From Geotalea daltonii FRC-32 (GTDB taxonomy: Bacteria > Desulfobacterota > Desulfuromonadia > Geobacterales > Geobacteraceae): a DNA stretch of 32,000 bases. A program made the position numbers and the translations under genes. Location of the stretch: positions 1,800,001-1,832,000 of the forward strand of contig NC_011979.1 in NCBI RefSeq assembly GCF_000022265.1, in the 5' to 3' direction. Each line of letters starts with the position of its first letter. Position 1 is the stretch's first letter. Of this stretch, positions 3 to 32,000 are shown piece after piece. The notes under the pieces are model-generated. The model saw only the letters and a program-made list of their open reading frames with translations, did no database searches and was not told where the DNA came from.

Positions 3-152
3 GTTACCCAGATCGGCAAAGAGTGCCATACCCGCTGTGCCATCTACTACCAGGCCGGTGACTGCGTCATGCCCAAGGAAGGGATCTTTGCCAGGGTCAT
101 TACCGGCGGCACGATCAAGCCCGGTGATGGGATTGCGGTGAAGGAGCGTTGA
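3..152 (+). CDS. MOSC-domain protein, C-terminal 49 codons (5' end outside window)
   Basis: Frame 3 reads without stops as VTQIGKECHTRCAIYYQAGDCVMPKEGIFARVITGGTIKPGDGIAVKER, with stop TGA at 150-152. The QIGKECH..C...GDC.MP.EGIF...GG.I..GD pattern is typical of small molybdenum cofactor sulfurase C-terminal (MOSC) domain proteins. Too short to appear in the ORF track. Confidence 0.55.
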   Translation, partial: VTQIGKECHTRCAIYYQAGDCVMPKEGIFARVITGGTIKPGDGIAVKER

Positions 153-234
153 TTGGTGATTGGTGATTGGTGATTGGTGAGGTGGTAACTTCGAACTTCG
201 AACTTCGAACCTAGAACCTAGAACCTAGAACCTG
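150..234. repeat. Back-to-back tandem heptamer arrays: TGATTGG x4 (+TGA), AACTTCG x3, AACCTAG x3 (+AACCTG)
   Basis: Read directly: units at 150,157,164,171 (TGATTGG); 187,194,201 (AACTTCG); 208,215,222 (AACCTAG). The first TGA is the stop of the + strand MOSC gene. CTA at 225-227 is the TAG stop of the - strand kinase gene. Confidence 0.95.
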
Positions 235-3602: not shown

Positions 3603-3685
3603 GTAGTTGCACTCCATACTCCCCTCGCATCCCCCCCTACTCTGCATGGGGATGCGAACGTACGTGAACAGGAGGGTGAAATAAT

Positions 3686-3702
3686 TGTGTCAAAATGATA
3701 CA
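3686..3702. promoter_or_regulatory. Imperfect inverted repeat TGTGTCA-N3-TGATACA, candidate activator (UAS) site
   Basis: Half-sites match 6/7 as reverse complements. The repeat lies ~130 bp upstream of the -24/-12 promoter, a typical distance for bEBP binding sites. Function is inferred only. Confidence 0.25.
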
Positions 3703-3811
3703 TGAGATGGACAGAACAGCGCAAGACAACTTTTCTTCCCGCTACCGATGTTCTTCCCGGCATAACAAAAAGAGGAGGTATTCCAGCTAGTTGAACCCCT
3801 TCGGATCATTT

Positions 3812-3827
3812 TGTAAACGTGTAAACG
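3812..3827 (+). promoter_or_regulatory. Tandem TGTAAACG x2 abutting the -24 element; inverted copies lie downstream at 3873-3880 and 3900-3906
   Basis: Read directly: TGTAAACGTGTAAACG at 3812-3827, TGTTTACA at 3873-3880 and CGTTTAC at 3900-3906 (reverse complements). The binding factor is unknown. Confidence 0.35.
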
Positions 3828-3830
3828 TAT

Positions 3831-3845
3831 TGGCACGGCTGTTGC
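3831..3845 (+). promoter_or_regulatory. Sigma-54 (-24/-12) promoter TGGCACGGCTGTTGC for fdh cluster 1
   Basis: Exact match to the TGGCAC-N5-TTGC consensus with canonical GG-to-GC spacing. It lies 83 nt upstream of the fdnG ATG, and an NtrC-type activator gene is divergently adjacent. Confidence 0.8.
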
Positions 3846-3927
3846 CGTATACGGCTCGGTTGAAGCCACATTTGTTTACAGAACGCAGAACGTCTTGCAC
3901 GTTTACTTATCATGGAAGGGAGCACAT

Positions 3928-6900
3928 ATGGCAGTTTCACGAAGACAATTCCTGCAGGGGGGCGCATTGGCAGCGGCAGGGCTGGCGCTTACCGGCAAGC
4001 CCGGGGAGGCAAGCGTCGATGCGCCCCAGATGCGGACCAAGGGCCTGAAGTCATCCACCACCATCTGCCCGTTCTGCGCCGTCGGCTGCGGTCTGATCGT
4101 CCACACCCGGAACGGCAAGATCGTCAATATCGAAGGAGACCCGGATCACCCCATCAACCATGGGGCGCTCTGTCCCAAGGGGGGCGCCCTGTTTCAGATC
4201 GCTAACAACGAGCGGCGTCTGCAGAAGGTCATGTACCGTGCCCCCCGTTCCGACAAATGGGAAGAAAAGTCCTGGGATTGGGCACTGGAGCGGATCGCCA
4301 AAAACATGAAGGAAACCCGAGACAAGACCTTCAAGACGACAGAGATCAACAAGAAGGACAATAAAGAGTACCTGGTGAACAGGACCGAGGGGCTTGCTTT
4401 TTTCGGTGGCGCAGGGTTGGACAACGAGGAATGCTACCTCTGGTCCAAGTTTGGCCGGGCCATGGGTGTGGCTAACCTGGAACACCAGGCCCGACTTTGA
4501 CACAGTGCTACAGTCGCCGGTCTGGCGGCTTCATTCGGTCGTGGTGCCATGACCAATCACTGGATTGACCTGAAGAACTCCGATGCCATTCTGGCCATCG
4601 GCTGCAACCCGGCCGAGAACCATCCTATCTCCTTCAAATGGATCGAGGAGTCACTGGATAACGGCGGCAAGCTCATTGCCGTCGATCCCCGTTTTACCCG
4701 GACCGCCTCAAAGGCGGACATTTATGCCCAGATCCGGCCGGGCACCGATATCGCCTTTCTCGGCGGGCTGATCAACTATGCCCTCAGCCATAACCTGATC
4801 CACCAGGAATACGTGCGGGAGTACACCAACGCCACCTTCATCGTCAACGATAAGTTCGATTTCGAACAGGGAATGTTCTGCGGCTTTGACGACACGGAGA
4901 AGAGCTACGATTTAAAGATGCTTGCCTATGAGCTGGACGGTGCCGGCAACCCGAAGCAGGACCGCTCCATGCAGCATCCCCGCTCCGTTTTCCAGCTGAT
5001 GCGTAAGCACTTCTTCCGTTATGACGTGAATACCGTCTGCGCCATCACCGGCACGAAAAAGGACGAGTACCTGAATGTAGCCAAGACTTTTTGTGGCACC
5101 GGCCGTCCCGACAAGGCCGGGACCATCCTCTACGCCATGGGCATCACCCAGTCTACCCACGGCACCCAGAACGTGCGTGCCATATCAATGCTGCAGATGC
5201 TCCTGGGCAACATCGGCATCGCCGGCGGCGGCATCAATGCCCTGCGCGGCGAGAGCAACGTCCAGGGTTCCACCGACTACGGGCTCCTCTTCCACATCCT
5301 GCCGGGCTACCTGAAATCCCCGGAGTTCGACAACGTGGACCTGAAGACCTACCTGGAGAAATGGACCCCCAAAACCAAGGACAAGAAGAGCGCCAACTGG
5401 TGGGGCAACACGCCGAAATATACGGTGAGCCTCCTGAAGGCCTGGTACGGCGACAACGCCACAAGGGACAACGACTTCTGCTACAGCTATCTCCCCAAGC
5501 GGAGCGGCAACTACTCCTATATGAAACTGATCGAGAAGATGGGCAAGGGGGAACTGGAGGGGCTGGTCTGCATGGGCATGAACCCGGCCATGGGGGGGCC
5601 CGACTCCACCAATGCCAGGGATGCCCTGGGCAAACTGAAATGGCTGGTCACCGTGGACCTGTGGGAAACGGAGACCTCCATCTTCTGGAAGCGCCCCGGC
5701 GTTGACCCGAAGAAAATTGATACTGAAGTATTCATGCTTCCTGCCGCCTCCAGCGTGGAAAAGGAAGGTTCCATTTCCAACTCGGGCCGCTGGGCCCAGT
5801 GGCGCTACAAGGCCCAGGAGCCGGTAGGCGAATCCAGGAGCGACCTGCACATCATCCACGAGTTCTTCACCAGGGTCAGGGACCTCTACAAGAAGGAAGG
5901 GGGCGCCTTTCCCGAGCCGATTACCAAGCTCGCCTGGAACTACGGCACCGGCCATGAGCCCGATGTGCACCAGGTGGCCAAGGAGATCAACGGCTACTTC
6001 ACGAAAGACATGACCATCAAGGACAAGGACAAGACCCTTGAATTCAAGGCAGGGGATCAGGTCCCCATGTTCAAGTACCTCCAGGACGATGGCTCCACCG
6101 TCTCCGGCTGCTGGATCTACTGCGGTTCCTATACCAAGGAAGGCAACCAGATGGCCCGCCGCGATGCCAGCGATCCCACCGGCCTCGGCCTTTTCCCCAA
6201 ATGGTCCTGGTGCTGGCCGGTCAACCGCCGCATCATTTACAACCGCGCCTCGGTCAATCCCGACGGTGTTCCCTTCAATCCCAAGCGGGTGGTGATCGCC
6301 TGGGACGGGCTGGAGAAGAAGTGGCAGGGGGATGTGCCTGACGGGCCGTGGCCTCCCATGAACGACGACAAGGAGGGGAAATATCCCTTCATCATGCTGG
6401 CCGAGGGGCATGCCCGTCTCTACGGCCTGGATCTGAAAGATGGCCCGTTCCCCGAGCACTACGAGCCGGTGGAGAGCCCGGCCAGGAACCTTTTGTCGCC
6501 GGTGCAGAACAACCCGGTGGTCAAACTGCCGAAGAACGTCTCCTCCGATCTGGCGAAATTCCCGTATATCGGCACCACCTACCGGGTCACCGAGCACTGG
6601 CAGGCCGGGGCCATGACCCGCAACCTCCCCTGGCTGGTGGAACTGGTGCCCGACATGTTCGTGGAACTCTCGGAAACCCTGGCCAAAGAGAAGGGAATCC
6701 ACCAGGGGGACAAGGTGAGAATCAGCACCGTGCGCGGCACCATCGAAGCGACGGCGCTGGTGACGGCACGGCTCAAACCATTCAATGTTGATGGAAAAAT
6801 GATCGAGCAGGTGGGGATGCCTTGGCACTTCGGCTATGCGGGCCTGGCCAAGGGGGACAGCGGCAACGTCCTGACCCCGTCCGTTGGCTGCGCCAATACC

Positions 6901-14805: not shown

Positions 14806-17800
14806 ATGGCAGTTTCGCGCAGGAACTTTCTCAAGCTTTCAGGGGCCGGTCTGGCGGCGTCGGCGCTGGGGCTGGATCTGGCCCCGCTGGAGGCGAAGGC
14901 GGAGGACCTTCCTATCCGCTTTGCCAAGGAGACCACTTCAATCTGCCCTTACTGCTCGGTGGGGTGCGGCATGATCATGCATACCCTGGGAGGGAACCTG
15001 ATCAACGTGGAGGGGGACCCGGACCATCCTATAAACGAAGGGGCCCTCTGTCCCAAAGGTTCGGCGGTTTTCCAGCTGCGGGATAACCCGGCCCGGGTGA
15101 CCAAGCCCATGTACCGTGCGGCAGGCTCCAAGGAATGGCAGACGGTCACCTGGGACTGGGCCATGGACGAGATCGCCAGGCGGGTGAAGAAAAGCCGCGA
15201 TGCCAGCTTCGTTGCCACCAGCAAGATCAAGGTGAAAGAGAAGGTGGGTGACGCCGAGGTGGAAAACGAGGTGACGGCGACGGTCAACCGGACCATGGGC
15301 ATGGCCTCGGTGGGTAGCGCCGCCCTGGACAATGAAGAGTGTTACCTGTACCAAAAACTATTAAGGGGGTTGGGCCTGGTGTACATCGAACATCAGGCGC
15401 GCATTTGACACAGCGCAACTGTAGCGGCTCTGGCAGAGTCGTTTGGACGCGGTGCAATGACCAACCACTGGATAGATCTGAAGAATTCAAATGTTATTCT
15501 CATCATGGGCGCCAATCCCGCTGAAAACCACCCGGTCTCCTTCCGCTGGATATTGAAGGCCAAGGATGCAGGGGCCAAGGTTATCTGCGTCGATCCACGT
15601 TTTACCCGCAGTGCGGCCAAGGCCGACATTTATGCTCCCCTCCGTTCCGGAACGGATATCGCCTTCCTGGGGGGCATGATCAATTACATTTTGCAGAACC
15701 ACCTTTATTTCGCCGAATATGTCAAGCACTACACCAATGCTCCGCTTCTGGTGAATGCAGCCTTCCGGATGCCCGATGAACTGGATGGCCTTTTCTCCGG
15801 CTACGACCCCAAAAAGCGCAGTTATGATGCCAAATCCTGGGGATTCCAGAAAGATGGAGCAGGTAATCCCCTTGCCGATCCGACCCTCAGTGATCCCAAC
15901 TGCGTATTCCAGCTTCTGAAGAAACACTACGCCCGCTATACCCCGGAGATGGTCTCCAGCATTACCGGTACCTCCAAGGAGACCCTGATCGAGGTGTACA
16001 AGGCATATGGCTCCACCGGCGCCCCCGACAAGGCGGGAACCTCCCTCTATGCCATGGGCTGGACCCAGCATACGGTGGGGACCCAAAACATCCGGGCCAT
16101 GTCCATCATTCAGCTGCTTCTGGGCAATATCGGCATTGCCGGGGGCGGGGTAAACGCACTGCGCGGCGAGTCAAATGTCCAGGGCTCAACCGACCATGGC
16201 CTGCTTTTCCATATCCTTCCCGGTTACCTGCCAATGCCGTCTGCTGATTTGAAAGACCTTGCCGCCTACAACGCCAAGTACACCCCGAAGAGCAACGACC
16301 CCCAGAGCGCCAACTGGTGGCAGAACCGCCCCAAATACATCGCCAGCTACCTGAAGGCCATCTACGGCGCCAAGGCCACCAAGGAGAACGATTTCGGTTA
16401 CCAATGGCTGCCCAAGCTGGATCCGGGGATGAACGGCTCGTGGCTGATGATCTTCGACCAGATGATCAAGGGGAAATTCAGCGGCTTCTTTGCCTGGGGG
16501 CAGAATCCGGCATGTTCCGGCGCCAATTCCAACAAGGTGCGCAAGGCCCTGTCAAGGCTTGACTGGATGGTGGCGGTCAACCTCTTCGACAATGAGACCG
16601 CTTCCTTCTGGCGCGGTCCGGGCATGGATCCCGCCAAGGTGAATACGGAGGTTTTCCTCCTTCCCGCCGCCGCTTCCTTCGAAAAGGAGGGATCGATAAC
16701 CAATTCGGGGCGCTGGGCCCAGTGGCGCTATGCGGCGGTGAAGCCCCTCGGCCAGTCCAAGGCCGATTCGGAGATAATGAACGAGCTTTTCTTCCGCATC
16801 AAGGGGCTTTATCAGGTAGAAGGGGGCGCGCTCCCCGAGCAACTCCTCAACCTGACCTGGAACTATGGGTTCAAGCGGGCCGATGGCATCATCCGCAGCG
16901 TCGATATCCATGCCGTGGCCAAGGAGATCAACGGTACCTTCATTGCTGAAGTGGAGGACAAGCCCAAGGCCAAGCCTGGAGAGCCACCGCCACCGCCACC
17001 GCAGCCGTGGGAGAAGAAACTGCTCGGCAAAAAGGGTGAGCTGGTCGACGGCTTCGCCAAGCTGCAGGCAGACGGCAGCACGGCCTGCGGCAACTGGATC
17101 TATTGCCAGAGCTACAACGAAAAGGGGAACATGATGGCCAGGCGGGTGAAAAAGGACCCCACCGGCCTGGGGATGTTTCCCGAGTGGTCCTGGTGCTGGC
17201 CGGTGAACCGGCGCATCATCTACAATCGGGCTTCGGTCAACCTGGAGGGCAAGCCGTTCAATGTGAAGAAGGCGGTTGTTTATTGGAACCCGCTGGCGGT
17301 TCTGCCCGACGGCAAGCTGGGCAAGTGGGAAGGGGATGTGCCCGACGGGCCGTGGCCACCCATGGCCGATGCCAAGGACGGGCGCAAGCCGTTCATCATG
17401 CGTGCTGACGGCCTGGGGGCACTCTTCGGGCCAGGCTTGAAGGATGGGCCGTTCCCCGAACATTACGAACCTGTGGAATCGCCGGTAGCGAAAAACCTGC
17501 TGTCGAAGCAGCAGATCAATCCGGCGGTGAAGATCTTTGCCGATGGCACAATTCCTGAGGATGTGCTGGCCTCGGCTGACAGCAAATTTCCCCTTGTGGC
17601 GACTACCTACCGGGTTACCGAACATTGGCAGACAGGCGTTATGACCCGTAACACCCCTTGGCTGCTGGAACTGCAACCGCGGCAGTTCGTGGAAATGAGC
17701 GTTGAACTGGCCAAGGAGAAGGGGCTGAATAATGGCGATCAGGTTGTAGTTTCCTCGGCCCGGGGAAGCATCGAGGCTGTGGCCGTGGTTACGCCGCGCC

Positions 17801-19367: not shown

Positions 19368-20210
19368 ATGCCCAATACAGCAGCGAAGCTTGAGTTTCTG
19401 CGCAAAACCGTTTGCGATCATCCGGAATACGGCGAGATCCTGCCGCTGTTCCAGGCCCTGTATCAGGTCATCGACGGGCAGGAAGAGCGGACAGGCATCC
19501 ATTTCAACCAACCGGCCGACCATGTGCAGGAAAAAGTGAGAAATGGCTTTCCTCTTCTCACCACTGAACATCTGGAGATCGATCCTTTCCAGGCAGTCGC
19601 CTTTCTCACAGTAGTCATCGAAGCCATGTTGCAGGTGAGCAGGGAGGGGCTCGACGAACTGAGCCGCTTGCGGCAGGCAATCGCTTCAGGGGACCTGGAC
19701 CTGCAACCACTCTTTGCCGGCTGCCTTTCCCGTGAAAGAAGTGCTGTGGAGGAAGCTGCCGCCCAATTGGAGGTCCCTTCGCCCCTCATGGAATTTGTCC
19801 TGGAAATCCCGTTGAAAACTGCCCTGGGAATTTACGCCGAGGCAATCTCTCCCGAGCAGGTTTCGGGCTGGACAGAAGGGTACTGTCCCATCTGCGGCTC
19901 CAGGGCAGGCATGGGGGAAATCTGCGGAGAGGATGGCAAACGTTTTCTCTCCTGCTCCAGCTGTTTCTTCAAATGGCCCTACAAGCGGTTGAAATGCCCC
20001 TATTGCGGGAATGACGATCCGGATACCCTGTCATATTTCATGGTCGGGGAAGGACCGACGCGAGTGGATGTATGCCGCAAATGCAGCAGGTACCTGAAGA
20101 CCAGGGATGCCAGGATTGGCAATTCAGAAGTGCCCCTGGAAGCGGAAGACCTGGCGACCATTCACCTTGATCTGCTTGCAGGCAAAGAGGGATTCGAGCG
20201 TGGCAAATAA
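19368..20210 (+). CDS. fdhE: Formate dehydrogenase accessory protein FdhE
   Basis: Has four CxxC pairs (CPICG, CSSC, CPYCG, CRKC) in the FdhE arrangement. The ATG is 2 nt after the fdnI stop. Confidence 0.85.
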   Translation: MPNTAAKLEFLRKTVCDHPEYGEILPLFQALYQVIDGQEERTGIHFNQPADHVQEKVRNGFPLLTTEHLEIDPFQAVAFLTVVIEAMLQVSREGLDELSRLRQAIASGDLDLQPLFAGCLSRERSAVEEAAAQLEVPSPLMEFVLEIPLKTALGIYAEAISPEQVSGWTEGYCPICGSRAGMGEICGEDGKRFLSCSSCFFKWPYKRLKCPYCGNDDPDTLSYFMVGEGPTRVDVCRKCSRYLKTRDARIGNSEVPLEAEDLATIHLDLLAGKEGFERGK

Positions 20211-22726: not shown

Positions 22727-23256
22727 AGTTAAATCCTCCATGTTAGTAAAAACAACATCAATAAATGGCGCTAATGGTATACATCCGTTTATTGATATGT
22801 CAAGATTTCATAAATTATCAAAAATTATTTTTCGTTATAAAAATTAATATCAAAAACTGAAGCTGGATTTTGCAATGCCAGTTTTTGAGGGGGAACCCAT
22901 TGGTTTTCCTCCTCCGGTATTTATAAGCTGCTTCTGTGACTGCCTCCTTTCATCAAAAATTCAGCGGCATCTTCCCTTCGGCAAAATAGTTCACCTCCTG
23001 CGCGTGTTGAAGTCCGGCGCTGCTTCTGCGCTTTTTCTACAGCGACTTAGCCTCCTTTCGGTAAAACAATGATTTATTGTTTATCAATATATCTCTTAGG
23101 CATTTGTATTGTCAATGAACTTGAAAACTGGTATTGTTTTACCATTGTAAAATGCTGTTTGCATATATAGCTGGGGTGGCAGCAGCAAGCTTCCCCTTGT
23201 CTTTGTGCCGTCACTTCCGGTAAACTTCATCAATCCCCATATCGACGAGGTTCCCT

Positions 23257-24027
23257 TTGAACAAAGATATCCCTGTTTATCATTATGACGGCGGCGTACT
23301 TGCCCCGGTTCAGGTCCATCCGGTTAAGGAATTTCCCATGAAACTGCTGGTCAATGAGCGTGAACTGGCGACGCTGGTTGCCTCACCCCACGACCTGCGT
23401 TTTCTGGTTGCCGGTTTTCTCAGACTGCAGGGCTTCGTCAAAAGTCTTGACGACTTTGTCCTGTTCAGCGTCTGCAACGACTTCGGCGTCGCCAACATCC
23501 GTATCAAAGGCGAACTGCCTGACAAGTTGCGACCGATCCTTACTTCGGGCTGCGGTACCGGGGTGACCTTCACTCTGCCGGGCTCTGACAGTGTCGGCAA
23601 AGTGTCTCAGCCTGACGGATTGAGTGTTCCTCCCGAAGCAGTGTTTGCCCTGATGGATGATCTTGGGAAGAAGGCCGAGCAGTATCGCAGTCACGGTGGC
23701 ATTCATTCTGCCGCCGTCGGCGATGGAGAAGATTTGCTCCTCTATGCCGAGGACCTTGGCCGCCACAATACCCTCGATCGTATTGCCGGCGAGGCTCTCT
23801 TCAAAGGGGTCGATCTCACCGGCAAGATGCTGGTCACCTCAGGCCGCGTCTCCAGCGAGATGGTTGCAAAGGCAGCTCTGCTGGGCATCAGCCTCATCGC
23901 CTCACGAACCTCGCCCACCGATATGGCGGTACAGATAGGCGACCAGTTGGGGATTACCCTGATCGGCTATGTGCGTGGCAGAAAATTCAATGTCTACACC
24001 CACTCTCAGCGCTTGGTCATATCGTAA
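23257..24027 (+). CDS. fdhD: Formate dehydrogenase accessory sulfurtransferase FdhD
   Basis: Conserved FdhD segments GGIHSAAV, GRHNTLDRIAG and SGRVSSEMVAKAALLGISLIASRTSPT. Has a TTG start at 23257 with GAGG 6 nt upstream. An alternative ATG at 23338 makes the start uncertain. Confidence 0.85.
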   Translation: MNKDIPVYHYDGGVLAPVQVHPVKEFPMKLLVNERELATLVASPHDLRFLVAGFLRLQGFVKSLDDFVLFSVCNDFGVANIRIKGELPDKLRPILTSGCGTGVTFTLPGSDSVGKVSQPDGLSVPPEAVFALMDDLGKKAEQYRSHGGIHSAAVGDGEDLLLYAEDLGRHNTLDRIAGEALFKGVDLTGKMLVTSGRVSSEMVAKAALLGISLIASRTSPTDMAVQIGDQLGITLIGYVRGRKFNVYTHSQRLVIS

Positions 24028-24038
24028 TCAGTCGCAGC

Positions 24039-24059
24039 AATTGCCCAGGGGGCAATTTT
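24039..24059 (+). terminator. Possible terminator hairpin after fdhD
   Basis: 8-bp stem AATTGCCC/GGGCAATT with a 3-nt loop, running into TTTTA. The U-tract is weak. Confidence 0.4.
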
Positions 24060-24107
24060 AGTGATAAAAGTTCTTTACAAAATAACGCAAGAATGTTAAT
24101 TACTATT

Positions 24108-24122
24108 CTATCAAATAGATAG
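24108..24122. promoter_or_regulatory. Operator-like palindrome CTATCAAATAGATAG just upstream of the Rrf2 gene
   Basis: CTATC-N5-GATAG inverted repeat, matching 13/15 with a second copy at 24613-24627. Confidence 0.4.
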
Positions 24123-24131
24123 GGTAATGTA

Positions 24132-24593
24132 TTGATCTCCAAGAAGACAAAATACGGCTTGAAAGCGATGATTTACCTGGCAAAGGTCTATGACCAGGGG
24201 CCGGTACTGATTGCCGATTTGGCAAGGGAAGAGAAAATCCCGAAAAAATTTCTGGAGCTGATCCTGCTGACACTGAAAAACCATGGGGTATTACAGAGCA
24301 GGAAAGGGAAAGGGGGGGGCTATTACCTGGGCAAACTCCCAAAGGAGATCAGCCTCGGTAAACTGGTGCGAATCCTGGACGGCCCGTTGGCTCCCGTTCC
24401 TTGTGTCAGCGAGACCGCCTATGCAAAATGCGATGAATGTCTGGATGAGAGAACATGCGGTATCCGGCTGGTGATGAAGGATGTGCGGGATGCAATAGCG
24501 GAAATTCTGGACGGAACATCCCTGGCAGACGTGCTGGAACGAAGCGAGAAGGCAGAGCAGCTGGAAAAGGGCATTTTTACATATAGCATCTAA
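24132..24593 (+). CDS. Rrf2-family transcriptional regulator (Cys-containing, possibly Fe-S)
   Basis: Rrf2 winged-helix N-terminus (ISKKTKYGLKAMIYLA...IADLAREEKIPKKFLELILLTLKNHGVLQSRKGKGGGYYL). A cysteine cluster PCVSETAYAKCDECLDERTC is present. TTG start. Confidence 0.85.
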   Translation: MISKKTKYGLKAMIYLAKVYDQGPVLIADLAREEKIPKKFLELILLTLKNHGVLQSRKGKGGGYYLGKLPKEISLGKLVRILDGPLAPVPCVSETAYAKCDECLDERTCGIRLVMKDVRDAIAEILDGTSLADVLERSEKAEQLEKGIFTYSI

Positions 24594-24612
24594 AATTTTT
24601 TTACTCATAAGA

Positions 24613-24627
24613 CTATAAAATTGATAG
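24613..24627. promoter_or_regulatory. Second copy of the operator-like motif (CTATAAAATTGATAG) upstream of cysP
   Basis: Lies 41 nt upstream of the cysP ATG. It overlaps a TTGATA hexamer (24621-26) and is followed by TATAAT (24631-36). Confidence 0.4.
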
Positions 24628-24667
24628 AGATATAATATTATAAGTAGTAAATAAAGGAGGGCAATTC

Positions 24668-25672
24668 ATGTTGACAACAATCAGTAGAGCCATTTTCTTT
24701 GCCGCTTTGGCAGTTGGCCTGCCGTTGGCGGCATTCGCACAGGTCAACCTTTTGAACGTTTCCTACGACCCGACCCGCGAGCTTTACCAGGATTTCAATA
24801 GCGCCTTTGCCAAGCAGTGGAAAAAACAAGCCAAGGAAGATGTTAGCTTCAAGCAGTCCCACGGGGGGTCCGGCAAACAGGCCCGGGCGGTTATCGATGG
24901 TCTGGATGCCGATGTGGTCACCCTGGCTCTGGCCTACGACATTGACGAGATCCATGACAGGGCGAAACTCATCCCACAGGCGTGGCAAAAACGGCTGCCC
25001 AACAACAGTTCACCCTACACCTCGACTATTGTTTTCCTGGTTCGCAAGGGTAATCCGAAGAAGATCAAGGACTGGAGCGATTTGGTGAAGCCAGGTGTGG
25101 CAGTTATCACCCCCAATCCCAAAACCTCTGGCGGTGCACGATGGAATTACCTGGCTGCCTGGGGGTATGCCTTGAAACAGAAGGGTGGAAATGAAGCCAA
25201 GGCAAAGGAATTTGTCACGAGGCTCTTCAAGAACGTGCCGGTCCTTGATTCGGGAGCGAGGGGCTCTACGACTACATTTGTCCAGCGCGGACTGGGAGAT
25301 GTGCTCCTTGCCTGGGAAAACGAAGCGTTTCTGGCAGTGAACGAACTGGGCAAAGACAAATTCGAGATTGTCGTGCCATCTGTCAGCATCCTCGCCGAAC
25401 CGCCGGTGACCGTGGTCGACAAGGTCGTTGACCGGAAGGGGACGCGCAAGGTGGCCGAGGCATATCTGAAGTATCTCTACACGCCGGAAGGGCAGGAGAT
25501 CGCTGCCAGGCACTATTACCGGCCCAGGGACAAAAAGGTGGCGGCAAAATACGCCAAGACCTTCCCCAAGGTGAAGCTCTTTACCATCGATGGGCAGTTC
25601 GGCGGCTGGCGAAAGGCGCAGAAGGCGCACTTTGCCGATGGCGGTGTATTTGACCAGATCTACGCCAAGTAA
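24668..25672 (+). CDS. cysP: Sulfate/thiosulfate ABC transporter periplasmic binding protein
   Basis: Has a signal peptide and near-colinear matches to remembered Sbp/CysP segments ([81 protein letters not shown]). Confidence 0.9.
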
Positions 25673-25707
25673 AGAGTGAAGGGCGAGGAGTGAAGAGTGA
25701 GGAAGAG
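25673..25707 (+). repeat. Degenerate heptamer array AGAGTGA AGGGCGA GGAGTGA AGAGTGA GGAAGAG
   Basis: Starts the nucleotide after the cysP TAA stop. It contains the GAGGAG SD and the GTG start (25697) of cysT, and uses the same TGAAGAG family as 30523-30564. Confidence 0.8.
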
Positions 25708-26527
25708 CCAACAACATAACGTGCTTCCTGGTTTTGGCCTGACGCTGGGTTATACGATCTTTTATCTCTGTCTGATCGTCTTGATCCCCTTGTCGGCCCT
25801 GGTCTTCAAGACTGCGACCATGTCCTGGGGCGATTTTGTCGCCGCCGTCACTGCGCCGCGGGTGGTGGCCTCTTACCGGGTAACCTTCGGCGCGGCGCTG
25901 CTGGCCGCTATCAGCAATGCCGTCTTCGGCGTGCTGGTGGCCTGGGTGCTGGTCCGTTACCGTTTTCCGGGGAAGAAGCTGGTGGATGCCCTCGTGGATC
26001 TTCCCTTTGCCCTGCCAACTGCCGTGGCCGGCATTACCCTGGCTTCGGTCTATGCCCCCAACGGCTGGATCGGCAAATGGCTTGAGCCCCACGGCATCAA
26101 GGTGGCTTACACGCCCCTGGGTATTCTGGTGGCGATGATCTTTATCGGCCTTCCATTTGTGGTGCGGACGGTGCAGCCGGTCCTGGAGGAACTGGAGGCG
26201 GAATTGGAGGAAGCTGCTGCCTGCCTGGGGGCCAACCGCTGGCAGACCTTCCGCCGGGTGCTGTTCCCGGTGATGCTTCCCTCAATTCTCACCGGCTTTG
26301 CCCTCTCCTTTGCCAGGGCGGTCGGCGAGTACGGCTCGATCATCTTCATCGCCGGCAACATGCCCATGGTATCGGAGATTACACCACTTCTGATCATCAC
26401 CAAGCTGGAGCAGTACGATTATGCAGGGGCTACGGCTATCGCCTCGGTGATGCTTCTGGCCTCGTTCGTCATGCTCTTTGCCGTGAACCTGTTGCAGAAG
26501 TGGAGCAGACGGTTCGCCGGCAATTAG
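25697..26527 (+). CDS. cysT: Sulfate ABC transporter permease CysT
   Basis: The N-terminus VLPGFGLTLGYT matches the remembered CysT/CysU pattern, and the permease EAA-loop region is LEEAAACLGANRWQTFRRVLFP. GTG start at 25697, with no in-frame ATG before the first TM helix. Confidence 0.85.
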   Translation: MRKSQQHNVLPGFGLTLGYTIFYLCLIVLIPLSALVFKTATMSWGDFVAAVTAPRVVASYRVTFGAALLAAISNAVFGVLVAWVLVRYRFPGKKLVDALVDLPFALPTAVAGITLASVYAPNGWIGKWLEPHGIKVAYTPLGILVAMIFIGLPFVVRTVQPVLEELEAELEEAAACLGANRWQTFRRVLFPVMLPSILTGFALSFARAVGEYGSIIFIAGNMPMVSEITPLLIITKLEQYDYAGATAIASVMLLASFVMLFAVNLLQKWSRRFAGN

Positions 26528-26609
26528 CAGGGAAACCTGAACCACGAATAACACGAATGAACGCGAATGGTGAGACGATAAGCCACGATGATCTTCTGGA
26601 GAGGAAGCA

Positions 26610-27488
26610 ATGAATAGTACCGGGGTGCTGACAAATAATAGGGAACTGAGCAACAGAAATGAGCTGACCGAACCCGTGCTGGTGCGCTGGCTGCTGATTG
26701 CCGTGGCACTGGCATTTCTGGGCCTGTTCCTGGTGGTTCCCCTGGCGGCGGTCTTCAGCCAGGCCCTGGAGAAAGGGTTCGACGTCTATCTTGCTTCCCT
26801 GAAGGAGCAGGATGCCGTTGCCGCCATCAAACTGACCCTTGTCACTGCCTTGGTCAGCGTGCCGTTGAACCTGTTCTTCGGTGTTGTTGCCGCCTGGGCC
26901 ATTGCCAAATTCGATTTCCCCGGCAAAAGCTTCCTCATCACCTTGATAGATCTCCCTTTTTCCGTGTCACCGGTTATATCAGGCCTCATCTACGTGCTGC
27001 TCTTCGGCCTGCAGGGGTGGCTGGGCCCGTGGCTCCAGGAGCACGACATCAAGATCATCTTTGCCGTGCCGGGTATCATTCTGGCTACCATTTTCGTCAC
27101 CTTTCCCTTTGTGGCCCGTGAGTTGATTCCCCTCATGGAATCCCAGGGGAAAGACGAGGAGGAGGCAGCACTGGTATTGGGAGCGAGCGGCTGGCAAACC
27201 TTTTGGAGGGTTACCCTTCCCAATATCCGCTGGGGTATCCTTTACGGCGTCATTCTCTGTAATGCCAGGGCCATGGGGGAATTCGGCGCGGTATCCGTCG
27301 TTTCCGGCCACGTGCGCGGCTCCACCAATACCATTCCGCTGCATGTGGAGATTCTCTACAACGAGTACAATTATGTGGCCGCCTTTGCCGTGGCGTCACT
27401 TCTGGGGATGCTGGCAGTCGTCACACTGGTTGCCAAGAGTTTAGTCGAGTGGCGGATAAAGGCTGTGAAGAGGGACGGTGATTGGTGA
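26610..27488 (+). CDS. cysW: Sulfate ABC transporter permease CysW
   Basis: Permease fold with EAA loop [34 protein letters not shown] precedes the ATG. The last 7 codons (VKRDGDW) are encoded by a repeat unit. Confidence 0.9.
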
Positions 27489-27518
27489 AGAGGGACGGTG
27501 ATTGGTGATTGGTGATTG
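27465..27518 (+). repeat. 20-bp tandem duplication (GTGAAGAGGGACGGTGATTG x2) followed by GTGATTG x2
   Basis: Copies at 27465-27484 and 27485-27504 are identical, followed by heptamers at 27505 and 27512. The cysW stop TGA (27486-88) lies at the junction. Confidence 0.95.
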
Positions 27519-27567
27519 GTGCCGGGTAAATAGTGACGTGAATTAAAGAAATGGGGCTAGATAGAGC

Positions 27568-28638
27568 ATGAGCATTGAAGTCAGAAATATAACCAAGACC
27601 TTCGGCGGTTTTACCGCCCTCAAGGATGTCAGTGTCAATATCCCCACGGGAGAGCTGATCGCTCTCCTGGGTCCTTCCGGTTGCGGCAAGACCAGTCTTT
27701 TGCGGATCATTGCCGGTCTGGAAACGCCCGATGGGGGAAGTATCCATTTTAACGGCGCGGACACCACCAGGCACGAAGTACGCGAACGTAAAGTGGGTTT
27801 CGTGTTCCAGCACTACGCACTGTTCAAGCACATGACCGTCTTCGACAACATCGCCTTTGGGCTGCAGGTGAGGCCCCGCAAAACGCGGCCGACAAGGGAA
27901 GAGATCGCCGCCAAGGTTCACGAATTGATCCGGTTGGTGCAGCTGGAAGGAATGGCCCAGCGCTATCCGTCCCAGCTTTCCGGCGGGCAGCGGCAGCGGG
28001 TGGCCTTGGCCAGGGCGCTGGCCGTGGAGCCCCAGGTGCTGCTCCTGGATGAGCCCTTCGGCGCCCTGGATGCCCGGGTCAGGCAGGAACTGCGCCGCTG
28101 GCTGCGGCGGCTCCATGATGAGCTGCACATCACCAGCGTCTTCGTCACCCACGACCAGGAAGAGGCGCTGGAAGTGGCCGACCGGGTGGTGATCATGAAT
28201 GCCGGCCAGGTGGAGCAGGCCGGCACCCCGGAAGAGGTTTATGATCATCCGGCTACCCCCTTTGTCTACAACTTCCTCGGCAACGTCAACCTTTTCCATG
28301 GCCGGGTAAACCAGGGGCAGGCCAAACTTGGGGAGATGGAGCTCTCCACCCCGGAACTGGCAGCGGTGCCGGACCGTCCTGCAGTGGGTTACGTGCGTCC
28401 CCATGACCTGGAGCTTGAGCGGAACTACTCGAACAGTTCCTCGGTGGAGGCTTCGATTCGTCACATCCATGCCGTCGGGCCGGTGGTACGGATAGAGCTG
28501 GAGCGGGGAGATACCTTCGAGATTCTGGAAGCGGAATTGACCAAGGACGTTTACCAGAAGCTGGCTCCCCAGGTGGGGGAGAAGGTCTTTGTCCGGCCGA
28601 GGAAATACCGGGTATTCGTCGATGACTACCAGATCTGA
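27568..28638 (+). CDS. cysA: Sulfate ABC transporter ATP-binding protein CysA
   Basis: Has Walker [10 protein letters not shown], signature [15 protein letters not shown], Walker B LLLDEPF and a C-terminal regulatory (TOBE-like) domain. Confidence 0.9.
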
Positions 28639-28663
28639 TGCGGAGGCAACAACCGGGGGTAAT

Positions 28664-28831
28664 ATGCAGAACAATGGGGAGGGTTCGGGCAGACAGCTCT
28701 GGAGCATTGAACTGGAAGAGAAGGTCAAGGATTCATTGGCCAGCATTCGCTTCGGCACCCTCACCCTGATCATTCAGGACGGCAAGGTGATCCGGATGGA
28801 TCGCAACGAAAAGATAAGGCTGACCCAATAA
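28664..28831 (+). CDS. YezD/DUF2292-like small protein
   Basis: 55 codons. The FGTLTLIIQDGKVIRMDRNEKIRL core matches the small YezD-type proteins often found next to sulfate transport genes. Start ATG 28664 chosen behind GGGGG. Confidence 0.65.
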   Translation: MQNNGEGSGRQLWSIELEEKVKDSLASIRFGTLTLIIQDGKVIRMDRNEKIRLTQ

Positions 28832-28855
28832 CGATGGCGGGCGGAAGATTCTCCG

Positions 28856-29024
28856 CTAGGAGTCTGTCTGACTTAGGGGATCGTAGCGAGAGGATAGCAG
28901 GTCGAGGACAGATTTACGGAAATTTGAAGACGAATAGTGGACCTATTGGTCGAAAATTTCCGGGAATATGGACCGATCTGCTATTCTCGCAGCAGATTCA
29001 TTCCTAAGTCCGACAGACTCCTAG
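28856..29024 (+). repeat. ~170-nt extended imperfect palindrome (long hairpin) in the cys operon 3' UTR
   Basis: The outer arms CTAGGAGTCTGTCTGACTTAGG (28856-77) and CCTAAGTCCGACAGACTCCTAG (29003-24) pair at 21/22. Inner segments pair further (GCGAGAGGATAGCAGGTCG with CGATCTGCTATTCTCGC; CGGAAATTT with AAATTTCCG), and the apical hairpin is AATAG-TGGAC-CTATT. Confidence 0.85.
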
Positions 29025-29064
29025 GCATTGATAATCATAACCATTAGTTGACCAGGCTGACTGG

Positions 29065-29105
29065 AGGCTAAGTTAATCCCACGGGATAGCTTGGCCTTTT
29101 TTTTT
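29065..29105 (+). terminator. Rho-independent terminator of the cysPTWA-yezD transcript
   Basis: Stem AGGCTAAG/CTTGGCCT (one G-U pair) with inner stem ATCC/GGAT, followed by a run of 9 T (29097-29105). Confidence 0.7.
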
Positions 29106-29311
29106 CTCCGGGCTTTGAAAAACTACTGCGAGGCCGATCTGCGGCATTACCGCTCGCTCGGAAACTCAACGTACTTCGTGTACGTTTCGTCTCCTCGCTC
29201 ATGAGGAGGCCGAAATGCAAGGCTCAAGTGACGTTTTTCAAGGCCCTGATATCTGCACGTTTTTTCCAGTTCCTTCAACTGAAGGATATTTCAATAAAAG
29301 GAGCGATAGCT

Positions 29312-30511
29312 ATGGCGAAGCAAAGGTATCTGTTTACATCGGAATCGGTCACCGAAGGCCATCCGGACAAGCTGGCGGATCAGATTTCAGACTCGGTGCT
29401 GGATGCGATTCTGGAACAGGACCCCCTGGCGAGAGTTGCCTGTGAAACCAGCCTCAATACTGGATTAGCCCTGGTGACGGGAGAAATTACAACACTGGCA
29501 CGGCCGGAGATAGCCAAAATCGTCCGCAACACCATCAGGGAGGTTGGCTATGATCATCCCGACTATGGCTTCGACGGGAAAACAGCCGCAGTCCTTGTTT
29601 CGGTGGATGAACAGTCGCCCGACATTGCCCAGGGAGTGAACCGGGCGCTGGAAGCACGCCGGAACGGTGATCATGACGGTTATCTGGACTCGGTTGGGGC
29701 AGGAGACCAGGGGATGGTGTTCGGTTTTGCCACCGATGAAACGCCGCAGTTTCTCCCCACCAGTATTGCCTTGGCCCATGGCCTTTCCCGCCGCCTGGCT
29801 GAAGCAAGGAAAAGCGGTGACATATCCTATCTACGCCCGGATGGCAAAAGCCAGGTGACGGTGGAATATGAAGGAGACCGGCCGGTGCGGGTGGATACTA
29901 TCGTTATCTCGGCACAACACGCTCCCGAGGTTGAGCTTGAACAGATTCGCAAAGACATCATCGCCCAGGTGATCGAACCGGTCATACCTGATGGATTGCT
30001 GGACGACAAAACGAAGATCTATGTCAATCCCACCGGCCGTTTCGTCGTCGGCGGACCCCATGGCGATGCGGGGCTGACCGGCCGCAAGATTATTGTCGAT
30101 ACCTACGGCGGTTTTGCCCGGCATGGGGGGGGCGCCTTTTCGGGAAAAGATCCCACGAAAGTTGATCGTTCCGGCGCCTATGCGGCACGTTATGTGGCGA
30201 AGAATGTGGTTGCTGCAGGCCTTGCCAGGAGGTTGGAAGTTCAGATTGCATACGCAATCGGCGTGGCGCGGCCGGTTTCCATATTTGTCGACAGCTTCGG
30301 CACAAGTGAATTCACCAATAGCGAACTTGCCGAGCTGATAGCAGCCAACTTCGATCTGCGCCCAGCGGCAATCATAGAGCAGCTCGATCTGCGCCGCCCG
30401 ATCTACCGGCAGACTGCCGCCTATGGTCACTTTGGCCGGACTGATCTGGATCTTCCCTGGGAACGAACTGACAAGGCTGAGCAGCTCAAGCAGGCGGTAA
30501 TAAAACAGTGA
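29312..30511 (+). CDS. metK: S-adenosylmethionine synthetase
   Basis: ATG 29312 lies behind AAAGGAG. Conserved segments are [33 protein letters not shown] and [19 protein letters not shown]. The track ORF's upstream extension from 29201 has no support. Confidence 0.95.
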
Positions 30512-30571
30512 ATGGTGAATGGTGAAGAGTGAAGAGTGAAGAGTGAAGAGTGAAGAGTGAAGAGTGAAAGG
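30509..30571 (+). repeat. Nine-unit tandem heptamer array: TGAATGG x2, TGAAGAG x6, TGAAAGG x1
   Basis: Units begin at 30509,16,23,30,37,44,51,58,65 with no gaps. The first TGA is the metK stop. The last unit runs into AAAGGAG, the SD for the ATG at 30581. Confidence 0.95.
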
Positions 30572-30580
30572 AGAATTGTC

Positions 30581-31834
30581 ATGTCCGTTGCTTTGAAACG
30601 AACATTCGAAAATGAACTGAGCCTGAACGAGGTGGTGGAAAAGTATCCCGATGTGCCGAGGCTGATTGCGCTGAAGATCGACGCGCAGAGGCGGGGAGTC
30701 CATTACACGGAGCGTGCCCTGGCCTCTATCGACGATACGGTGCAGATGCGCAGCCCTTACATCTTCGGCTCCCGGGACGGCGAGATCAAACCGCTGCCCG
30801 AATCGATCCTGCTCAGGGACGGAACCTCAATCCTCACCGATCCGACGCCCCTTGAGCAGAATCCCTATCTTGTCGACCTGGTGGACGGTCGCTTGGCGCT
30901 CGTTGATGGCGGGGAACCGGTCGAATTTGTGGAACTATGGCCGAAGCCGCTCTACTACGACAAAAAAACCAGTTCCGGCGTGCCAATGAGTCATATCGCC
31001 AGCGCCAGGCCGCAGCGGCTCAACATCTTCCAGTCAAGCTTCTGCCATTTCTGGGCGGAAAAACAGGAATGCCGCTTCTGCGACATTGTCAATCATACCA
31101 AACAACAGAAAGACGCCCTGGGAGTGCCGACCAGGTTGAAACCGGAAGACGTGTCGGAAACGGTGCGCGAGGCGCTCAAGGAGCCGGGTCGTTTCACCAG
31201 CATGTGCCTGACTGCCGGCTCAGTTCTCAAAGGTGAGGAGATCTTTGACCGGGAGGTGGACTACTACATCGAGACCCTTCAGGCCATCGGCGAGAATTTC
31301 ACCACCAAGAAGTTTCCAAGTCAGTTGATCGCTTCAGCCTTCAATGAGAGGCAGTTGGCGCGCCTCTACGAGCAGACGGGACTTACCAGTTATACCAGCG
31401 ATCTGGAGGTGCTGGGGGAAAAGATGTTTAATTGGATCTGCCCTGGCAAGGCTCAGTCGGTCGGCTATCGGGAGTGGCAACAGCGCCTGATCCGGGCTGT
31501 GGATATCTTCGGCCGGGGGAATGTTGGTACCGGTTTGGTGGGAGGGGTGGAACTGGCCAAGCCGAGCGGCTTTACCCGTGAAGACGACGCCTTGGCATCG
31601 ACCCTGGCTGAAGCGGAATACCTGGCGGAGAATGGTGTGACGACCGTTTACATCGTTTGGGTGCCACGCCCCGGTTCCTATTTCCGCGATCAGCAAAATC
31701 CATCACTTGAATACTTCGTCCGGTTGGCCAGGGGACTCCACAACCTGCGGGTGAAATACAATTTAGGCGTCGATTTCGATGATTATCGCCGTTGCGGCAA
31801 TCATCCGGACACGGATCTTTCACGGCTTCTTTAA
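30581..31834 (+). CDS. Radical-SAM-like protein with atypical CX8CX2C cluster motif, family not recognised
   Basis: 417 codons from ATG 30581 behind AAAGGAG. The only cysteine triad near the expected position is CHFWAEKQECRFC, whereas the canonical radical SAM motif is CX3CX2C. It has a ~150-aa N-terminal extension. The assignment is tentative. Confidence 0.5.
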   Translation: MSVALKRTFENELSLNEVVEKYPDVPRLIALKIDAQRRGVHYTERALASIDDTVQMRSPYIFGSRDGEIKPLPESILLRDGTSILTDPTPLEQNPYLVDLVDGRLALVDGGEPVEFVELWPKPLYYDKKTSSGVPMSHIASARPQRLNIFQSSFCHFWAEKQECRFCDIVNHTKQQKDALGVPTRLKPEDVSETVREALKEPGRFTSMCLTAGSVLKGEEIFDREVDYYIETLQAIGENFTTKKFPSQLIASAFNERQLARLYEQTGLTSYTSDLEVLGEKMFNWICPGKAQSVGYREWQQRLIRAVDIFGRGNVGTGLVGGVELAKPSGFTREDDALASTLAEAEYLAENGVTTVYIVWVPRPGSYFRDQQNPSLEYFVRLARGLHNLRVKYNLGVDFDDYRRCGNHPDTDLSRLL

Positions 31835-31852
31835 AGGGAAAGGAGACAGATA

Positions 31853-32000
31853 ATGGCTGTACAACTGACCAAGGAAATTATCGACCTGCTGAATAATCAC
31901 GAGAGTACGAAGGTGTTGTCCACCCTGGATGGTGACGACTTTCCCCATGCAGCAGTGAAAGAGTCGCTGCTGGCAGGGGAAGACGGCAATATCCTTTATC
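31853..32000 (+). CDS. Pyridoxamine 5'-phosphate oxidase-family (FMN-binding split barrel) protein, N-terminal fragment
   Basis: ATG 31853 lies behind AAAGGAGA. MAVQLTKEIIDLLNNHESTKVLSTLDGDDFPHAAVKESL resembles the N-terminus of PNPOx-like proteins. The ORF runs off the window. Confidence 0.5.
   Translation, partial: MAVQLTKEIIDLLNNHESTKVLSTLDGDDFPHAAVKESLLAGEDGNILY

Follow-up and report, generated by a model that had tools for sequence, protein, structure and literature searches.

We start with the junction between two genes in a 32,000-nucleotide stretch of the Geotalea daltonii FRC-32 genome (NC_011979.1, positions 1,800,001 to 1,832,000; the whole stretch is called the window here, and coordinates are counted from its first letter). 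The upstream gene, metK (29312..30511, plus strand), encodes an S-adenosylmethionine synthetase of 399 aa in which the three S-AdoMet synthetase Pfam domains are all present; its true start is the ATG at 29312, with an AAAGGAG site ahead of it. The downstream gene (30581..31834, plus strand) encodes a radical-SAM-family protein of 417 aa, whose homologues are named 'radical SAM protein' in the sources and have metK upstream in synteny in relatives; its ATG at 30581 is also preceded by AAAGGAG, and the relatives keep an aaggag motif at an equal distance. The entire spacer between the two genes (30509..30571, plus strand) is a tandem array of nine heptamers. Direct reading of the sequence gives TGAATGG twice, TGAAGAG six times and TGAAAGG once with no interruption, where the first TGA is the metK stop codon and the last unit overlaps the AAAGGAG of the Shine-Dalgarno (SD) site. 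Tandem Repeats Finder (TRF) returns a period of 7, 8.9 copies and 94% matches, so the original prediction of nine gapless heptamers that run from the metK stop into the next SD site holds in full. This array and its companions elsewhere in the window are hypermutable, Geotalea-specific heptanucleotide microsatellites that belong to the bacterial class of long simple sequence repeats (SSRs) with units of 5-11 nt. The explanation that we favour, with a probability of about 0.6, is a slippage microsatellite that selection confines to the length-tolerant DNA after stop codons.

The edges of the array deserve attention. MetK of G. daltonii ends in AVIKQ*, two residues fewer than the AVFKKSA* or AVFRKSA* of its relatives. 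On the other side, the eighth unit contains a GTG at 30557 that is in phase with the radical-SAM ORF (open reading frame) and would give a product of 425 aa rather than 417 aa. The exact 417-aa product matched only Logan contigs and not the NCBI genome, so the deposited radical-SAM annotation may start inside the metK array. Start and stop calls beside such arrays are unreliable, and this in-frame GTG is one example.

Does the same kind of array occur elsewhere in the window? Over the 32 kb of the genome that the window statistics cover, the pattern TGA-N4 in three successive copies has 11 matches against 0.21 expected from shuffles, and TGAWDRG in four copies has 7 against 0.00, which excludes chance. 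With a minimum of 2.6 units, there are six exact arrays at period 7 and zero to two at each other period from 4 to 12, and period 7 is the sole enriched tandem period in the window. Near the left end, a partial MOSC-like gene ends at 152, and its stop codon is the first TGA of a plus-strand array (150..186) that consists of 4.4 copies of TGATTGG (150-180) and then the variant TGAGGTGGT. Next to it on the minus strand (187..233) stand AGGTTC, three copies of TAGGTTC and 3.4 copies of GAAGTTC, which read as AACTTCG and GAACCTA units on the plus strand; the first TAG (227-225) is the stop codon of a convergent histidine kinase gene (225-2216). Taken together, the two arrays make up the whole 72-nt gap between the convergent stops (153-224). 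The prediction had placed one array of TGA heptamers at 150-234; the heptamers are there, but two of the units contain no TGA. In the sulfate transporter genes, the sbp stop (25670-25672) is followed by the degenerate heptamers AGAGTGA AGGGCGA GGAGTGA AGAGTGA GGAAGAG (25673..25707, plus strand, lag-7 match 0.59), which run into the GTG start of cysT at 25697, and the opening cysT codons GTG AAG AAG AGC are the repeat unit itself. At 27465..27521 (plus strand), 2.2 copies of the 20-mer GTGAAGAGGGACGGTGATTG are followed by three of TGATTGG. The cysW stop (27486-27488) lies inside this array, the final eight cysW codons (VKRDGDW*) are made of repeat sequence, and 47 nt separate the end of the array from the cysA start. 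These two loci had also been predicted and are confirmed, the first as degenerate heptamers and the second as the 20-mer plus TGATTGG combination reaching to 27521.

The placement of the arrays is as regular as their period. Using a gene map from Pfam hits (a greedy stop-to-stop ORF caller misplaced some genes in this GC-rich window), all arrays in the window are found at gene 3' ends or co-directional junctions, with none in the coding regions, and there is no array in either of the divergent (promoter) gaps of the window (3648-3894 and 22742-23256). All five array loci are at gene 3' ends, of which there are about 17 within about 3.4 kb of non-coding DNA; by a rough estimate, this far exceeds random placement. 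The predicted design, in which an array starts at the upstream stop codon and reads in the direction of that gene, is seen in the window and again in the roughly 250 arrays from other phyla and viral contigs that are described below.

The number of units is not fixed. The metK array has nine units in the window and ten in a contig (L131) that is 98.8% identical over 3.1 kb, the difference being three copies of TGAATGG instead of two. At cysW-cysA, the TGATTGG units number 1+3 in the window and 2+7, with one TGATCGG variant, in two independent metagenome assemblies; in both assemblies CysA is identical, and the cysW-cysA flanks shown match the window except for unit number. The arrays therefore gain and lose whole units at about 1% sequence divergence, and at both loci this variation leaves the flanking ORFs intact. 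Outside the species, the relatives keep the metK and radical-SAM gene pair with its aaggag SD site, yet the metK array is missing from the orthologous spacer in a Geobacter metagenome-assembled genome (MAG; L126), in L129, in G. pickeringii (L130) and in the metagenome relatives L132 (92% aa identity), L134, L136-L138 and L148. In L159, the nearest outgroup with the same cysTWA-metK-radical-SAM synteny, all of these spacers are free of arrays, which confines the array family to Geotalea.

The cys arrays, in contrast to the metK array, which no relative outside the species has, are present in both G. toluenoxydans and Geotalea sp. SG265, though with other units and counts. The sbp-cysT spacer of G. 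toluenoxydans has GTGAAGA/GGGTGAG heptamers, and a homologous array is found in SG265. At cysW-cysA, G. toluenoxydans has two copies of TGATTGG and then seven of TGAAGAG, the extra units being inserted after the cysW stop; the cysW end of SG265 has only GTGAAGG GTGAAGA GTGAAGG, which encodes VKGEE*, the third unit supplying the stop; and in G. daltonii the coding end is duplicated as the 20-mer. The right flank of the array is identical between SG265 and G. toluenoxydans. The CysW ends in the three Geotalea species (one form is RTVKGEE*) are very unlike CysW ends elsewhere, and both the MetK and the CysW tails diverge from those of relatives exactly where the array starts. A third G. toluenoxydans array (L154:19888-19910) comes after the TAG stop of a transporter gene (19871-19873) and a coding-end duplication of about 13 nt. 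Aligned in this way, the sequences indicate that the Geotalea arrays grew from short proto-arrays straddling a stop codon, with positions kept while units and counts turn over, and that they have reshaped the protein ends of CysW and MetK and the start of cysT. The arrays account for the tail differences of MetK and CysW from their relatives.

The arrays also leave a mark on genome assemblies. SRR9436588 Logan contigs that are 100% identical to the window end inside arrays, from which it follows that short-read assemblies break at these junctions. The Logan assemblies of the G. daltonii read sets break off within the metK array from either side (L001:1-42 and the 3' ends of L124 and L125). Arrays that are longer than the k-mer fragment assemblies, and under-counting of such arrays in MAGs is to be expected.

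Are such arrays a peculiarity of Geotalea? The pattern TGAWDRG in four copies was scanned against one genome per GTDB species and against IMG/VR viral contigs, with at least 120 matches in each, so the abundances in both, and the taxonomic range in the first, are lower bounds. The GTDB matches listed include Acidobacteriota, Bacteroidota, cyanobacteria, Planctomycetota, Proteobacteria, Bacillota and others. Among the matches listed, 868 kb of other array-bearing genomes contain 173 exact period-7 arrays of at least three units, compared with at most 10 for any other period, and 74 of the 173 lie outside any overlap with the search pattern. The stop-triplet enrichment among these unselected neighbouring arrays was not used, many of them being variants or inverted copies of the selected ones. 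For about 250 arrays we compared placement using a gene map of stop-to-stop ORFs of at least 90 codons, a crude form of gene calling; on this map, and among the matches listed, the array lies within 11 nt of, or contains, the stop of a co-directional upstream ORF in 34 of 56 cases in genomes and 40 of 67 in viral contigs. For the mirrored orientation the corresponding numbers are 3 of 36 and 1 of 22 (Fisher 3e-7 and 3e-6 against sense placement). Sense arrays are thus stop-anchored in about 60% of the listed cases and mirrored arrays in 5-8%, a difference seen in each of the two GC classes. Upstream neighbours are co-directional by 56:30 in the genomes and 67:26 in the viral contigs listed, and where the stop lies inside an array of the listed genomes it is the first TGA in 9 cases and the second or third in 3 and 5. 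Stop-anchored placement on the sense strand is general across phyla and viral contigs. At many of these loci the array reaches the next gene start or forms an inverted pair with the potential for a hairpin. In Pyrinomonadaceae, Gemmatimonadota and others (L008, L042, L080, L030, L037, L063), a reverse-complement array often follows the TGA-heptamer array at 20-100 nt; such pairs make long perfect 3'-end hairpins, possibly microsatellite-derived structures that are terminator-like or stabilise mRNA.

Within the window, we looked for structure and signals in and around the arrays. The RNA of the metK array folds no better than shuffles (z = +0.94), with the array bases unpaired in the centroid structure, and the region of the convergent pair (130-260) has z = -0.15. 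The promoter and terminator scan of 24000-32000 gives counts equal to those of shuffles, with no terminator-like site in the spacers, and no promoter-like hexamers flank the arrays. Rfam has no match at gathering score in the whole window, and the scan of the window for tRNA and transfer-messenger RNA (tmRNA) finds none. Cytosine is scarce on the sense strand of the arrays, at 0-2 C per 31-63 nt. The four TGA units (TGAATGG, TGAAGAG, TGAAAGG and TGATTGG), read directly, all end in G and so present GTGA every 7 nt.

With these properties several known element classes can be set aside. A palindrome of the type of repetitive extragenic palindromes (REP) and bacterial interspersed mosaic elements (BIME), or an intrinsic terminator, is rejected, as there is neither a stable stem-loop (z of +0.94 and -0.15) nor a terminator-like site in the spacers. 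A G-quadruplex-type repeat, which needs at least four tracts of at least three G, is rejected because the heptamer units have no GGG tracts: the longest G run in uninterrupted units is GG, and the GGG runs at 27472-27474 and 27492-27494 belong to the 20-mer of the cysW array. Membership in the TAACTGA repeats fails on the units, which here are TGAAGAG, TGAATGG, TGATTGG, TAGGTTC and GAAGTTC. The binding site of TRAP in the B. subtilis trp system has 9-11 (G/U)AG triplets at a spacing of 2-3 nt; here the GAG triplets are 4 nt apart (period 7), and neither GAG nor UAG occurs in the TGATTGG array. The HutP site of the B. subtilis hut operon has UAG triplets in two blocks of three, spaced by 4 nt, and a terminator downstream; the metK array has GAG and UGG instead of UAG, with no terminator, and UAG-N4 repeats occur in one array only (227-207, minus strand), as one block at a gene 3' end. 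A phase-variation contingency locus is rejected as well: the arrays follow stop codons, no promoter-like hexamers flank them, and unit changes spare both ORFs. Classical contingency loci are found within coding regions or between promoter elements, and the metK array is in neither place. What the arrays do resemble is a heptanucleotide SSR of the long SSR 5-11 class: the tandem length is beyond chance, period 7 is dominant (over 32 kb only), the copy number is polymorphic between strains, and the arrays are non-coding with none between divergent genes.

The literature supplies several points of comparison. As cited in two later papers (PMC4679880, PMC4692102), Mrazek (2007) found that, among long SSRs, those with heptanucleotide units are the most abundant in the majority of prokaryotic genomes, and proposed polymerase slippage as the origin of long SSRs. 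The Geotalea arrays are like the long SSRs with 5-11 nt units so described in being head-to-tail, of a length beyond chance, intergenic, sporadic among lineages, dominated by period 7 and variable in copies; their anchoring at stop codons is sharper than in those descriptions as cited. In Xanthomonas and Nostoc, the heptamers GGGAATC and GGGGA(C/T)T have the G-rich strand as the coding strand and lie at most 50 bp from a stop codon or overlap it; they are transcribed, enriched in the gaps of co-directional ORFs and scarce in divergent gaps, and occupy the same gene pairs in sister species with varied length and sequence and no functional gene class (Rehm 2015, PMC4692102). The stop-proximal placement on the coding strand, the co-directional junctions, the shared positions in sister species and the lack of a gene class all have their counterpart in Geotalea, whereas the G3-4 tracts, the G-quadruplexes and the preference for four units do not, as G runs in the Geotalea units go no further than GG and no unit number is preferred. 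The TAACTGA repeats of marine Beggiatoaceae, cyanobacteria and Bacteroidetes have stops in all frames, are predicted to be unstructured and sometimes overlap the end of the upstream ORF; they are mostly directly before start codons, and a role in translation has been suggested (MacGregor 2015, PMC4679880). They share with the Geotalea arrays an intergenic, unstructured character, stops in all three frames of the forward orientation, occasional overlap with the end of the upstream ORF, a place directly ahead of start codons and a unit preferred by the lineage. The BOGUAY TAACTGA repeats, however, are mostly of 2-6 copies and start-anchored, the largest class ending 1 nt upstream, while the Geotalea arrays are stop-anchored and have another unit. 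Closer in taxonomy, G. metallireducens has heptamer sets of GGACCGG in four copies and MTYCTGA in five in inverted pairs, for example between proB and proA, and its heptamer and octamer sets have been proposed to bind unidentified global regulators (Aklujkar 2009, PMC2700814). These are also lineage-specific intergenic tandem heptamers of Geobacteraceae, but they have fixed copies (four or five), are dispersed and multicopy by BLAST and often form inverted pairs, whereas the Geotalea arrays are of variable length, single and made of other units. The searchable literature has nothing relevant on the Geotalea units GTGAAGA, GGTGATT and GGTGAAT or on G. daltonii repeats. The short tandemly repeated repetitive (STRR) heptamers of the cyanobacterium Calothrix PCC 7601 are non-coding tandem heptanucleotides beside genes as well, in a different phylum and with different units. 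Apart from the unit sequences, then, every feature of the Geotalea arrays has precedent, and the statement that no annotated feature type explains them does not stand, as stop-proximal heptanucleotide SSRs on the coding strand have been published (PMC4692102, PMC4679880, PMC2700814). Geotalea adds a proteobacterial lineage with its own preferred units to these scattered reports of bacterial heptamer SSRs.

How would slippage lead to such regular placement? In the favoured explanation, replication slippage with a strong bias to 7 nt in many bacteria would generate and resize the arrays, and purifying selection would clear them wherever length or sequence matters, i.e., from coding DNA, promoters and the distance from SD site to start codon. 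In a compact genome, the surviving site would be the stretch from a stop codon to the next signal, be it the downstream SD site or the stop of a convergent gene. Survival in the length-tolerant stretch only would make an array fill nearly the whole spacer and touch both stop and SD site. The seed may be the junction sequence itself, a stop codon, a purine-rich SD site or terminal or initial codons, and only units with stops in all frames could abut or invade the 3' end of a gene without producing a read-through tail. Junction seeding and this all-frame-stop filter would explain the stop triplets on the sense strand of the units. Any effect on expression, for example through a longer intercistronic spacer of unstructured C-free RNA, would be a by-product; there is no sign of a dedicated regulatory device in this analysis. 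Slippage and a neutral microsatellite family had been two separate suggestions of the original prediction, and between them they fit best, given the strain differences in copy number and the absence of the metK array from relatives; the classical contingency locus that the former had implied does not.

Several points weigh against this explanation. The gene calls behind the cross-phylum placement are crude, as stated above, and seeding explains the orientation bias only partly. Two units, GGTGATT and one of the GTGAAGA type, are each found again at several unlinked loci in two Geotalea species, a recurrence that the model leaves unexplained and that would not follow from seeding that was purely local and independent. 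The arrays at sbp-cysT and cysW-cysA persist in three species, which could reflect function or common descent. In the viral contigs, TGAAGAG in five copies occurs in 12 stretches against 0-3 for each of five permutations of the same composition, although the counts are small and some stretches come from one contig or sample. This hints at a unit-specific preference, and the model leaves the excess of TGAAGAG over its permutations unexplained. That any TGA-bearing heptamer is favoured can be rejected for the viral contigs, since TGAGAAG in five copies, one of these permutations, occurs in 1 stretch against 12 for TGAAGAG, a preference for particular units and not for any TGA. The arrays may also affect translation of the downstream gene. 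Why the unit is 7 nt long and why particular units are favoured are the questions that the analysis sharpens.

An effect on translation is the core of one alternative, in which the array is a tunable spacer for translational coupling: transcribed with its operon as an unstructured, C-free and purine-rich RNA, it would keep ribosomes on the message from one cistron to the next, with the number of units setting efficiency or phase. We consider this doubtful. It agrees with the unstructured metK array and the lack of a terminator between the genes, with the merging of the last metK unit into the SD site, and with the sbp-cysT array, which holds both the SD site and the GTG start of cysT; but the convergent pair at 150-233 has no downstream gene to couple, the cysW array stops 47 nt short of the cysA start, and the relatives keep the metK and radical-SAM pair and its SD site, all without the metK array. 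The array could act as a standby or SD-like tether, as GGUGAU is complementary to the AUCACC of the 16S 3' tail and may pair with it. It could also provide a chain of GUG...UGA mini-ORFs (e.g., MKSEE*), each two units long and ending on the next GTGA. The GTGA motif does place overlapping start and stop codons every 7 nt, whereas the TAGGTTC and GAAGTTC units contain no start codon. Pushed further, the GTGA arrays become a relay tunable by copy number, in which ribosomes re-initiate on the overlapping GUG and hop along two-unit mini-ORFs, and a change from nine to ten units flips the phase; this we regard as improbable. From the metK stop, such a chain of mini-ORFs would miss the in-frame GTG at 30557 with nine units and would hit it with the ten of L131. 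The arithmetic of 7 and 3 alone, however, gives an in-frame GTG in the last units in two thirds of cases. Translation has been proposed as the role of TAACTGA heptamers just before start codons (MacGregor, PMC4679880). Tuning of coupling by unit number, if real, would make the arrays a new kind of heritable control over expression, which the present evidence does not require; and if the relay were true, it would mean heritable and reversible tuning of operon stoichiometry by the same design in many phyla and phages.

The remaining alternatives would give the repeat a binding partner or a role in termination. In our judgement it is highly improbable that the arrays are binding sites recognised by their triplets at 7-nt spacing, whether by an oligomeric regulator that binds RNA (TRAP-, HutP-, CsrA-, Csp- or S1-like) or by a nucleoid protein that binds DNA. 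GAG, UGG or UAG triplets do stand regularly 7 nt apart and identical units are found at unlinked loci and in sister species, as one would expect of such a site, and binding of a global regulator has been proposed by Aklujkar for the G. metallireducens repeats (PMC2700814). The units, however, vary among arrays (TGAAGAG, TGATTGG, TAGGTTC, GAAGTTC), the copy number ranges from 3 to 10 and differs between strains, and the metK array is missing in relatives. The adjoining genes (MOSC-like, sensor kinase, sulfate ABC transporter, metK) have no common function, no terminator or antiterminator is adjacent, and neither the TRAP spacing nor the two UAG blocks of HutP are present. The suggestion of a TRAP- or HutP-like RNA site thus fails on its spacing, on its triplets and on the differences in units between arrays. 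The least probable of the alternatives, in our view, is a frame-independent stop pad selected to catch read-through or frameshifted ribosomes, which would be useful where UGA is recoded as selenocysteine (Sec). The window has two probable Sec genes: the in-frame ORF pairs 3895-4500/4549-6960 and 14761-15408/15457-17979 together make molybdopterin oxidoreductases (formate-dehydrogenase-like), each with one in-frame TGA (4498-4500 and 15406-15408) between its Fe4S4 and molybdopterin domains. The two UGA-Sec genes that had been claimed are plausible on this account. No Rfam model of a selenocysteine insertion sequence (SECIS) has a match in the window. The arrays do present stops in all three frames, with the first being the genuine stop at all four clear loci and, as given above for the genomes listed, in 9 cases against 3 and 5 across phyla. 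Three units would be enough for such a pad, yet arrays reach 9-16 units and vary freely, and the GAAGTTC and AACTTCG units have no stop on either strand. The outgroup L159, which was matched on cys-metK-radical-SAM synteny and not on Sec use, has no arrays, and similar arrays are found in many phyla and viral contigs that were chosen regardless of Sec use; both tell against the tie to Sec that had been proposed.

We turn to the other repeats near these genes. The cysT-cysW spacer (26528..26596, plus strand) has a decayed repeat of about 10 nt (TGAACACGAA-like) and is not a heptamer array. The segment 26531-26551, which had been taken for a degenerate heptamer array, has a match of 0.34 at lag 7 and 0.39 at lag 10, so that this assignment is withdrawn. 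In G. toluenoxydans the same spacer (L154:9870-9965) has three copies of TGACACGAAT, and the ATTCGTGAA-type units that come next are their inverted complement, so that a long hairpin would form; G. daltonii keeps the decayed left arm only. The metK-radical-SAM spacer of the related Geobacter MAG contains a different insert at L126:9890-9985, with degenerate AGGCTRW-like heptamers at one side and the complementary heptamers at the opposite side; it is reminiscent of the inverted heptamer pairs of G. metallireducens. Three metagenome CysW homologues (P0122, P0123 and P0124) are over-long (364-437 aa) with internal duplications of a block of about 70-150 residues, and are probably chimeric or mis-assembled contigs and not real genes. 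In the leftward direction, the response-regulator protein matched only Logan contigs, and these end inside the kinase gene. Upstream of metK, a 22-nt inverted repeat with 95% complementarity (CTAGGAGTCTGTCTGACTTAGG and CCTAAGTCCGACAGACTCCTAG; window 28856-29024) encloses 125 nt in which another inverted repeat is nested. Four independent assemblies (L122-L125) stop within this element, and the similarity of L131 to the window is lost exactly at 28854; the element resembles a small palindrome, mobile or multicopy, that sits where synteny breaks.

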